Origin: a virus
Taxonomy: Duplodnaviria; Heunggongvirae; Uroviricota; Caudoviricetes
Length of the DNA: 29,089 nt
Reading direction: 5' to 3' (one strand)
IMG/VR virus record: IMGVR_UViG_2529292726_000018
Coordinates: 1 to 29,089 of that record
Positions 23,412 to 25,320 of the stretch are shown piece by piece. The notes beneath the pieces are model-generated. The model searched no databases. It worked only from the letters and a program-made list of their open reading frames with translations, and was not told the origin of the DNA. How positions within the stretch are numbered: position 1 is the stretch's first letter; every line of letters begins with the position of its first letter. The position numbers and the translations under genes were made by a program.

Positions 23412-23495
23412 TCAACCCCAGCGGCAAATCGAATACACCACCAGCGCCACCGCCATCGCAATTCCTACCGTTGTGAATGCTTCAGACCAGGTCAT
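23412..23495 (-). CDS. Candidate small membrane peptide (27 aa) coupled to the upstream gene
   Basis: MTWSEAFTTVGIAMAVALVVYSICRWG. Its ATG overlaps the upstream TGA as ATGA (23495-23492). Hydrophobic core suggests a single transmembrane helix. Below the track cutoff. Confidence 0.3.
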   Translation of the reverse strand: MTWSEAFTTVGIAMAVALVVYSICRWG

Positions 23496-23995
23496 CGTAA
23501 AACATCCTCCACGCTTATAAGTCCGCTTCGCTCCAGGTAGTCCATCACTTTATCCGGCAATTTGCAGCCCGGTTTCGCTTTCTTAAGTTGACTAACCAAT
23601 TGTTTAACCAGCATTGTCAATTCGCGAACTTGTTTCCCGGGCTCCCCTTTGCCCTGAAGCAGGGCAGCGCGGCAAGCGTTCCATCCCTCAGCATATGTTT
23701 CAGTTACACCATCGAGATGGCATGTAAGCAAATCCATTTCTTCCGGCACTACGGGCGCTGGAAAAACGGCATAGGATGGCGTCCATTTTGGCGCTTTATC
23801 TCCAGCCGAACGCTGATACCAGTCATCCGGTTTGTATTCATAAAAATCACCAACTGGCTCTGCTTCCAGAGATGCCAGAGCAATTTTGAATAATTCGCCC
23901 TCTACCCATGCCATCCCTGAATTGGGGTGGCATTTCTCAATCGCTATTTTTAATTTAGCTTCTTCGATTAATTGCTTTTTGGTTAATTCAGTCAT
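23492..23995 (-). CDS. Hypothetical phage protein (167 aa)
   Basis: ATG 23995 (MTELTKKQLIEE...). An AGGAGG lies about 25 nt upstream with a small GAAA hairpin between. No recognised motifs. Confidence 0.6.
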   Translation of the reverse strand: MTELTKKQLIEEAKLKIAIEKCHPNSGMAWVEGELFKIALASLEAEPVGDFYEYKPDDWYQRSAGDKAPKWTPSYAVFPAPVVPEEMDLLTCHLDGVTETYAEGWNACRAALLQGKGEPGKQVRELTMLVKQLVSQLKKAKPGCKLPDKVMDYLERSGLISVEDVLR

Positions 23996-24156
23996 TTTTC
24001 ATTACCGCCCTTTCGGGCCGCCTCCTAATATTTTGAGGGTGCAGCCCCCCCCTCCGGTTAAGGATTAAATTTTATTTACAGTGCTAAATTTAATTATTCA
24101 GATTTGGATTATGATTTCTCTTTCAGTTCACGCAGTTCCCTGATTGTTAATTTGGC

Positions 24157-24579
24157 TCACAACAGCACATCCTGAAAATTACCCTGATAGAACGCCAGTA
24201 CACGCTGCATGACTTCGCTCTTCCGGCACTCGCGACAGATTATATTCAGACGCCTGTCATAGCGGCGTATTTCTCCGTCTGGTAATGACCAGATAAGGTC
24301 CGGATCAACTACAGCAGGTTTCTTCACCTTTGCCCTCGATAGTTTTTTGCGGGCGTTTTGCCAGTCCTTACGAGCCTGTTCAGAGGGAAATAGCCCGTAG
24401 CCGGAGTTATATACATCGCCACTGGCAACCAGCTCTCTGGCGAGAACGCTCATTAAATATCTTGTCGCACCTGTCTTAGCTTCAAGTTGTCGTAACGTCT
24501 CGCGCCCATTCTGGCGCACGAGTTCAACAACCTGCCCCTTAATTTTTTCCCGCTCTTCTTGTGTAAATACTTTTGCCAT
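24157..24579 (-). CDS. Hypothetical phage protein (about 140 aa)
   Basis: ATG 24579 with SD GGAGG (MAKVFTQEEREKIK...). Basic C-terminal half with a CxxC pair (CRECRK). Confidence 0.55.
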   Translation of the reverse strand: MAKVFTQEEREKIKGQVVELVRQNGRETLRQLEAKTGATRYLMSVLARELVASGDVYNSGYGLFPSEQARKDWQNARKKLSRAKVKKPAVVDPDLIWSLPDGEIRRYDRRLNIICRECRKSEVMQRVLAFYQGNFQDVLL

Positions 24580-24594
24580 AAGCGCCTCCGGCAA

Positions 24595-25320
24595 TCACTT
24601 TTCCGATACAACACAGCGGGAAGAATCAGTAATCTGGCGAACAATATCCCGGTGCTTGTTCAACTCCCGCAGCGCGGCGCAGACACGCTCCCACTTCTGG
24701 ACATGGCTTTTCGCCCGACGCAGTTTGCGGTTTGCCAGATGCAGCGATGGCAAAATCAAATCATCCGCCCGCGTTTCGGTAAACGATGGCAACGACTGCA
24801 CAATGTCCGCTACAGTATCTGTTTTAATTTCTTCCTGTGTTGCAGCCTCCTGTACTGGTAACGCAACACCTGCGGGCTGAGGAAAAGCCTTACCATCAGT
24901 TTCCGCTACCGATGCTGCTTTCGGCTCTGCTGGTAAATTATCGCCCGGTATGCAGTAACGAAATTTACCGCCCTGATTTACGCGAATCAGACGACCTTTG
25001 CTGATGGCCATAGCCAGCGATGAGTTCACCCTGCGGGAAGTAATTCTGAATATCAGTGCAAGTTCATCAGCCGCTTTAGGGCCATGCTGTTCAATCGCCT
25101 CGATCAGCATTTGCGCTGTCACTTTAGAAGCCTGTGCTACAGATGCGTTTTCGTCGGTTTGAGTCAACCACCACATCGGGCCCTTGTTATCAGCTTCCCC
25201 ACGACGCTTCAGTTTCCACAGCTCGTTAATCGCCTCATCCCGGGTCATTCCCAGACGTGCTGCCACTTCCTGGGAAGAGGCTTTTCCCATTGCTTTCAGT
25301 GCGTCAAAAACGGTCTCCAT
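24595..25320 (-). CDS. Hypothetical phage protein (about 241 aa), possibly two winged-helix-like segments
   Basis: ATG 25320 with SD GGGAGG ([39 protein letters not shown]...). Follows the DnaC-like gene, in the position lambda uses for ren. Confidence 0.55.

Follow-up and report, generated by a model that had tools for sequence, protein, structure and literature searches.

Gene layout of the early-right operon

The subject of this study is a group of three consecutive genes, named here G1, G2 and G3, in the tailed-virus record IMGVR_UViG_2529292726_000018 of IMG/VR (positions 1 to 29,089; this stretch of 29,089 nucleotides (nt) is referred to as the window). The window is a Rac-like lambdoid prophage with its early-right operon on the minus strand, and the operon runs from a cro-like gene through YdaT, the YdaU initiator and the DnaC-like helicase loader YdaV to G1, G2, G3, a small open reading frame (ORF) of 27 amino acids (aa) and a hairpin (Table 1). 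Farther down the operon are hok/sok, the genes for DUF1367 and YbcO proteins, and a DUF1133-type Q antiterminator. The slot of G1 to G3, directly after the genes of the initiator and helicase loader and before the DUF1367/YbcO/Q block, is the one that ren occupies in phage lambda.

An earlier note, made from the letters of the window alone, had described genes of 241, 140 and 167 aa in the ren slot. The genes, all three on the minus strand, and their placement were confirmed, the middle gene being itself a homologue of Ren by profile comparison (see below), and the start codons chosen in that note proved the best ones when ribosome-binding sites and homologue lengths were taken into account. 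The three ORFs stand well beyond chance, as judged by 309 bits for DUF1627 in G1, 108 bits for DUF977 in G2, the PHROG match of G3 and the substitution ratios of all three. The description of the genes as unrecognised and without placeable motifs did not survive: two of them belong to strong Pfam families, all three match PHROGs, and RefSeq carries annotations for them. In the light of these sequence matches, G1 to G3 are common, already catalogued genes of Rac-like Escherichia coli prophages; their families are known, and it is their functions that we infer here. Of 5426 complete E. coli genomes, 4646 gave megablast matches to parts of a 2.2-kb query from the region, and in 107 of them the matches covered 80% or more of the query. 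RefSeq E. coli DNA that is 94-96% identical is annotated as encoding a DUF1627 domain-containing protein, a DUF977 family protein and a hypothetical protein, and deposited phages in GenBank carry a near-identical stretch annotated as DnaC-like (ydaV), YdaW and LygF.

Table 1. Features of the early-right operon and its surroundings in the window
Feature	Position	Strand	Match or basis
cI-like repressor	27715-28134	+	
Cro-like gene	27381-27707	-	
YdaT/CII-slot gene	26962-27384	-	
YdaU-type replication initiator, ends ...IPPGFRG	26096-26884	-	phrog_2509 3e-89
DnaC-like helicase loader YdaV, directly upstream of G1	25343-26089	-	NCBIfam PRK12377 2e-151; phrog_50
G1, 241-aa DUF1627 protein, intact YdaW type	24595-25320	-	PF07789, phrog_630, AlphaFold (AF2) model
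G2, 140-aa DUF977 protein ('LygF'), long-form homologue of lambda Ren	24157-24579	-	PF06163, phrog_142
AT-rich G2-G3 spacer, 161 nt; start of hypervariable accessory slot	23996-24156	-	sequence
G3, 167-aa mosaic accessory protein	23492-23995	-	phrog_660
27-aa hydrophobic ORF MTWSEAFTTVGIAMAVALVVYSICRWG, previously unannotated	23412-23495	-	sequence, conservation
GC-rich hairpin separating the G3/mini-ORF unit from the BstA-like gene convergent with it	23377-23401	.	terminator-like on plus strand; minus-strand RNA fold
BstA-like KilA-N gene, convergent with G3	22598-23371	+	phrog_6287 2.7e-89; PADLOC BstA 3.2e-21
DUF1367 protein	20854-21453	-	phrog_319 'NinB/Orf homologous recombination mediator' 1.2e-69

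G2 is a long-form relative of lambda Ren

The ATG of G2 at 24579 lies 15 nt past the stop codon of G1 and is preceded at 5 nt by GGAGG. It yields a product of 140 aa, and 140 or 141 aa is the length of 110 of 120 homologues among the matches listed; the mechanical start, a TTG at 24594, would lengthen it to 145 aa. The protein matches the entire model of Pfam family DUF977 (PF06163; positions 1-134 of 134, E 3.8e-31, 108.4 bits with a cut-off of 22.1) and also phrog_142, a group labelled 'Ren-like exclusion protein' (5.5e-48), which lambda Ren itself matches at 1.6e-41. Lambda Ren has no Pfam family, and its Pfam search did not reach DUF977. The kinship was therefore checked independently of the PHROG, with a DUF977 profile built from 12 diverse proteins that were collected by an exhaustive HMMER search. 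The hhalign comparison of this profile with lambda Ren returned a probability of 95% (E 2.9e-8) over 81 columns that include the winged helix and the C-terminal motif. On the strength of these profile alignments, G2 is a homologue of lambda Ren and its counterpart in this prophage.

Seven columns (N112, E117, C118, R119, S121, M124 and R126) are invariant in the 12 DUF977 proteins and Ren. They belong to a C-terminal motif common to both, N-x4-ECRxSxxMxR, which in G2 reads PYDRxxNxICxECRxSxxMQRVLAFY and which BLASTP aligns between G2 and Ren with 55% identity over 20 aa. The CxxC pair pointed out in the earlier note is real: its cysteines, C115 and C118, show no variation among 121 close relatives and 12 diverse ones. 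There is only one such pair, however, and lambda Ren is without the first of the two cysteines. A zinc finger or zinc ribbon in G2 is not supported, given this single pair, the lack of a second one and the state of Ren; metal binding by a dimer is possible.

When searched against the PDB, the G2 profile retrieved winged-helix domains only (among them Z-alpha, MntR, and the heads of AsnC and GntR), all in the N-terminal half of the protein, and DUF977 was already called a winged helix by Kinch et al. 2009. The family is narrow. An exhaustive HMMER search with G2 recovered 104 clusters out of 1.84 billion representatives, mostly fragments and all of the same family, and only 24 deposited phage genomes encode DUF977, all of them from Escherichia or Shigella. 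The 'lyg' of LygF is merely a locus name from Salmonella Enteritidis Sdr I, and our survey of the literature found no functional studies on lygF, DUF977 or DUF1627. Some database proteins look as if deletions in decaying prophages had fused them, among them P0460, in which a DUF1627 linker runs into the C-terminal half of DUF977, and P0443, in which the N-terminus of YdaV is joined to the C-terminal motif of DUF977.

G1 is an intact DUF1627 protein with two winged helices

The start of G1 is an ATG at 25320 that follows GGGAGG at a distance of 8 nt and gives 241 aa, the length of 65 of 120 homologues among the matches listed; the upstream in-frame ATG at 25371 would extend the protein to 258 aa. 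G1 matches Pfam family DUF1627 (PF07789) along the full model (positions 1-155 of 155, E 5e-93, 309.4 bits with a cut-off of 28.1) and phrog_630 at 4e-118. Its AF2 model, which was computed from an alignment of 54 sequences and has a mean predicted local distance difference test (pLDDT) score of 68, divides the molecule into four parts. Two winged helices (aa 1-52 and 66-123; pLDDT 84-93 as means of 10-residue blocks) are followed by a disordered linker that is acidic and rich in proline (aa 131-189) and by a long C-terminal helix (aa 186-240; block means of 57-80 over residues 191-240). The suggestion of the earlier note that this protein may hold two winged-helix-like segments is thus supported by the model and by Foldseek, whose searches of the PDB and BFVD retrieved tandem winged-helix proteins only (ESCRT-II, SelB, ScpB, UFL1 and MarR-like); a functional twin of G1 was not found in these two databases. 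Single-sequence searches of the PDB with G1, G2 and G3 gave nothing meaningful.

The most variable segment of G1 across alleles is winged helix 1, for which the window carries a divergent allele that is 56-84% identical to the others. The most conserved parts are the linker and the C-terminal helix (77-100%). A Salmonella relative (locus L090, 3010-3516) is without the second winged helix and retains the C-terminal helix.

Gene order among related prophages

Gene order was compared in 80 related IMG/VR loci, 72 of which have enough upstream sequence. Since the loci were chosen by a near-identical G2 and are related, recombining prophages, their counts do not represent independent events. G2, 91-100% identical in this sample, directly follows the replication module in 72 of 72 loci, whatever the type of module. 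G1 is present in all 24 loci that have a separate loader (18 DnaC-like and 6 lambda-P-like), always in the order loader, G1, G2 and with the start of G2 placed 16-17 nt after G1, whereas it occurs in none of the 48 loci that have a single initiator (phrog_391 or phrog_3729), where the initiator gene ends 41 nt before G2. In the window, G1 follows YdaV after a gap of 22 nt.

This arrangement extends beyond the IMG/VR sample. A scan of GTDB for G1 returned only 5 loci; in four intact GTDB species loci, as in phage 75/02 Stx and the PPompW phages, a DUF1627 gene follows a helicase loader. Shigella phage 75/02 Stx has a DnaC-like loader, a DUF1627 protein 43% identical to G1 and a DUF977 protein 67% identical to G2, in that order, and E. 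albertii has a P-like loader, G1 and G2. A P-like loader followed by DUF1627, with no DUF977, is found in the PPompW phages and a Salmonella genome, and E. ruysiae likewise has a loader, then DUF1627, and no DUF977. A metagenome-assembled genome from soil (locus L089, 2663-3705) has a DnaC-like loader, a 109-aa Ren-like protein (phrog_142, 3.4e-11) and then DUF1627. In the E. ruysiae locus (L088, 4004-6073), a 689-aa protein stands after DUF1627 in place of G2 and G3.

The initiators themselves, although assigned to three different PHROGs (2509, 391 and 3729), share the ending ...IPPGFRG (in the window at 26096-26884; L049, 2983-3960; L021, 2941-3960; L044, 2884-3960). The YdaU protein of the window also has a weak match to the C-terminus of the primosomal protein DnaT (NCBIfam, E 0.0043). 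The common ending may be a shared docking tail.

Selection and expression

The ratio of nonsynonymous to synonymous substitution rates (dN/dS) was estimated from pooled pairwise comparisons of the window genes, taken as reference, with the distinct alleles of the 80 IMG/VR loci, and the values show constraint and not precise rates. They were 0.33 for G1 (23 alleles), 0.06 for G2 (44 alleles) and 0.39 for G3 (4 alleles), with 0.12 for the loader. These ratios place all three genes under purifying selection, and the constraint on G2 is stricter than that on the adjacent DnaC-like loader.

The minus strand from 23400 to 25500 showed no sigma-70-like promoter site. The lack of a promoter-like site and the close spacing of the genes suggest that G1 to G3 are most simply delayed-early genes of a PR-type transcript; as such they would be silent in the lysogen. 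A search of 23300-27000 found no operator-like repeats near G1 to G3, and the only notable set lies in the initiator gene. This set is a palindrome, TGTAACGC-N4-AGCGTTACA, present in three copies about 200 bp apart (26498-26521, 26705-26728 and 26897-26920) inside and just upstream of the YdaU gene, and its copies are candidate origin or operator sites. The only structural RNA that Rfam matched in the whole window was sok, outside G1 to G3.

G3 and the variable slot

The 161-nt spacer after G2 holds no Rfam family and no promoter- or terminator-like site, and the gene that follows G2 varies between otherwise similar prophages. In the window this gene is G3, which matches phrog_660 (1.9e-50) and, segment by segment, several further PHROGs; it has no match in Pfam (E<=0.1) or NCBIfam. 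From the N-terminus onwards it comprises a helical hairpin with ALASLEAEP at its end, a middle part that varies, the segment PAPVVPEE...GWNACRAALLQ and, over aa 119-167, a C-terminal module. A segment-wise homology map shows that homologues carry these parts in differing combinations, and in larger relatives a DUF551 domain is often inserted between the common parts. The AF2 model of G3 is of low confidence (pLDDT 54.5) and too poor for a fold search, and a profile search against the PDB found nothing. As mapped by these segmental matches, G3 is a mosaic accessory protein in a hypervariable slot.

The ATG of the 27-aa ORF overlaps the stop codon of G3 (ATGA). The ORF has no PHROG match, but it is conserved with 63-100% identity in many related loci, where it closes the variable slot beside G3-type C-terminal modules, and its dN/dS is about 0.25 (12 alleles). 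Its hydrophobic product may be a small membrane peptide. The hairpin beyond it is probably a terminator, as its predicted fold suggests.

Defence-type and recombination genes of the neighbourhood

The gene convergent with G3 encodes a KilA-N protein that matches the BstA abortive-infection family over its full length and has its own promoter-like site at 22433-22460. BstA proteins have been described together with a cognate self-immunity DNA element (aba) at their locus (Owen et al. 2021). It is this BstA-like gene, not G1, G2 or G3, that is the defence-type gene of the neighbourhood. PADLOC-DB gave no defence match for G2 or G3 and, for G1, a single hit at 0.0087 in which no matched stretch passed the E-value limit alone. 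Between the BstA-like gene and the DUF1367/YbcO/Q block sits a type I toxin-antitoxin pair, the hok toxin gene (Pfam HOK_GEF, 1.2e-23) with the sok antisense RNA (Rfam RF01794, 101 bits), at 21920-22075 and 22073-22243 on the minus strand.

By the earlier note, a confident assignment of the three genes to core replication or recombination families, such as NinB or Orf-like ones, would have spoken against its reading. This did not come about, as none of the three matches NinB or Orf profiles; the phrog_319 label of that name belongs to the DUF1367 gene, which is the NinB-like gene of the region.

Function of the three genes

What is recorded of lambda ren provides the frame for interpretation. 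This gene overlaps terminally with O and P and is translated together with them (bioRxiv 10.1101/2021.04.19.439022 and its supplement). Phages that are ren- grow poorly on Rex+ lysogens, the suppressors of this defect map in O and P, two-hybrid data show contacts of Ren with RexA and RexB, and the authors considered Ren likely to be involved in replication (bioRxiv 10.1101/2021.04.19.439022). A further item of this background is that the truncated K-12 ydaW came out of an overexpression screen as a blocker of the retron-Sen2 toxin RcaT (bioRxiv 10.1101/2020.06.22.160242). The synteny described above, the strict conservation of G2 and this literature make a role of G1 and G2 as replication accessories the best supported reading. 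We lean, with moderate confidence, towards the view that G1 and G2 serve the replication module as accessories of the Ren class, that G3 is a variable accessory of the nin region, and that none of them is an exclusion gene of the lysogen. Drawn from family, fold and gene order, the best reading of G1 and G2 is that they would be non-enzymatic winged-helix proteins, small adaptors or DNA binders, at the periphery of the module, with G1 accompanying modules that have a separate loader. Both proteins would be made with the replication proteins after induction, would act through protein or DNA contacts at the complex of initiator, loader and DnaB, and would keep phage replication going despite interference from the host or a resident prophage, much as Ren counters Rex. 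Protection of the lysogen would not be among their roles. G3 would most likely be another dispensable gene of host interaction or counter-defence.

Several points weigh against this interpretation. Lambda ren is dispensable for plaque formation, and we found in the literature no experiment on G1, G2 or G3 in a phage context. G1 and G2 each occur without the other; the alleles and domains of G1 do not sort by loader type, so that no co-adaptation of G1 and loader is visible; and tight linkage alone could yield the synteny counts. G1 is also ruled out as a second Ren, its hhalign probability with lambda Ren being 0.4% and not significant, and its match with G2 is a weak winged-helix one (53%). 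Finally, winged helices fit a plain role as transcription factors equally well.

In one rival proposal, G1 and G2 would be transcription regulators of the ordinary kind, whose winged helices bind specific operators of phage or host genes and which stand after the replication genes by coincidence. Both proteins do contain winged helices and have weak Pfam and PHROG matches to helix-turn-helix families of the MarR, FeoC and TrmB type, and YdaW appears in PMC9308461 as a predicted transcription factor of E. coli whose function is unknown. We nevertheless hold such a role to be unlikely. The repeat search turned up no candidate operators in or around the genes, and conservation peaks off the recognition helices, at the ECRxSxxMxR motif in G2 and the C-terminal helix in G1, with the first winged helix of G1 the most variable part of all. 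The closest tandem winged-helix structures (ESCRT-II, ScpB and SelB) bind protein or RNA, and the genetics and two-hybrid data of Ren point to O, P and Rex. A similarly low probability attaches to the idea that G1 to G3 are counter-defence factors unrelated to replication, which would block effectors of toxin-antitoxin or abortive-infection systems such as RcaT of retron-Sen2. It draws on the K-12 ydaW gene, which encodes a truncated protein with both winged helices and is among the prophage genes that blocked RcaT toxicity in an overexpression TIC/TAC screen (bioRxiv 10.1101/2020.06.22.160242), on the fact that escape from Rex exclusion is the sole known phenotype of Ren, and on the location of G3 in a hypervariable slot of the sort that accessory and anti-defence genes typically occupy. 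Note however that the ydaW result is an overexpression hit obtained with the truncated protein, with no follow-up found in the text consulted, that strict position beside the replication genes and the O and P suppressors of ren- argue for a link with replication, and that G2, by its dN/dS, is far more conserved than the usual genes of an arms race.

The earlier note had implied yet another role by its description of ren as exclusion-related, namely that G1 to G3 are expressed in the lysogen and protect it against other phages by superinfection exclusion or defence. The label of PHROG 142 and the presence of defence and addiction genes nearby (the BstA-like gene and hok/sok) speak for it, but we regard it as very improbable. 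Ren counteracts exclusion and does not cause it: it is described as enabling phage growth on Rex+ lysogens, not as excluding other phages (bioRxiv 10.1101/2021.04.19.439022), and the label 'Ren-like exclusion protein' is misleading for this reason. Moreover, G1 to G3 are without PADLOC matches and lie, with no promoter-like site of their own, inside the repressed early-right operon, while the defence-type gene forms a unit apart from them, on the other strand and served by another promoter-like site.

A bolder form of the replication-accessory interpretation may be offered as speculation that we consider improbable. DUF1627 would be a dedicated partner of stand-alone loaders, both the AAA+ DnaC-like and the unrelated lambda-P-like ones, and Ren/DUF977 would complete nearly all lambdoid replication modules as their third or fourth and last component. 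The two would jointly govern the hand-off between loader and DnaB, or else protect the replication complex against sensors of abortive infection such as Rex, retron toxins and BstA. If true, such a partnership would explain a ren phenotype that is 45 years old.

Three points possibly go beyond existing annotations and the literature consulted: that profiles connect DUF977 with Ren even without recourse to PHROG, that G2 has a very low dN/dS, and that DUF1627 is associated (24/24 versus 0/48) with stand-alone loaders from two families unrelated to each other. Ren-class genes are among the last early genes of lambda without a mechanism, and the homology of DUF977 and Ren, the constraint on G2 and the tracking of loaders by DUF1627 make a role in replication or anti-interference concretely testable.

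Comparison with known systems

YdaW of the Rac prophage of K-12 is the nearest known relative of G1, both genes following ydaV, and is 58% identical to it over aa 1-139, which include both winged helices. G1 represents the intact form of YdaW. The K-12 protein ends at about residue 151, the consequence of an internal deletion in Rac, and is without the linker and the conserved C-terminal helix of G1. G3 resembles the mosaic proteins of lambdoid early regions that contain DUF551 or belong to phrog_660 and phrog_60, having in common with them the ALASLEAEP hairpin, the GWNACRAALLQ segment and the C-terminal module; it differs in being without DUF551 (PF04448) and without any Pfam or NCBIfam match.

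Lambda Ren (96 aa) and G2 occupy the same slot, on the same strand after initiator and loader, belong to the same PHROG, and each have a winged helix at the N-terminus and the motif N-x4-ECRxSxxMxRVLAxY at the C-terminus. However, G2 has about 45 extra residues between winged helix and motif, and the invariant CxxC of DUF977 is FxxC in Ren. While ren overlaps the loader gene terminally, G2 is separated from it by G1 and has its own Shine-Dalgarno sequence. A Rex system is not evident in the window. The LygF/DUF977 proteins of Rac-like, mEp460 and Stx phages (for example gp18 of Shigella phage 75/02 Stx) are 67-96% identical to G2, with the same length and position and no material difference, and G2 is a member of their family.

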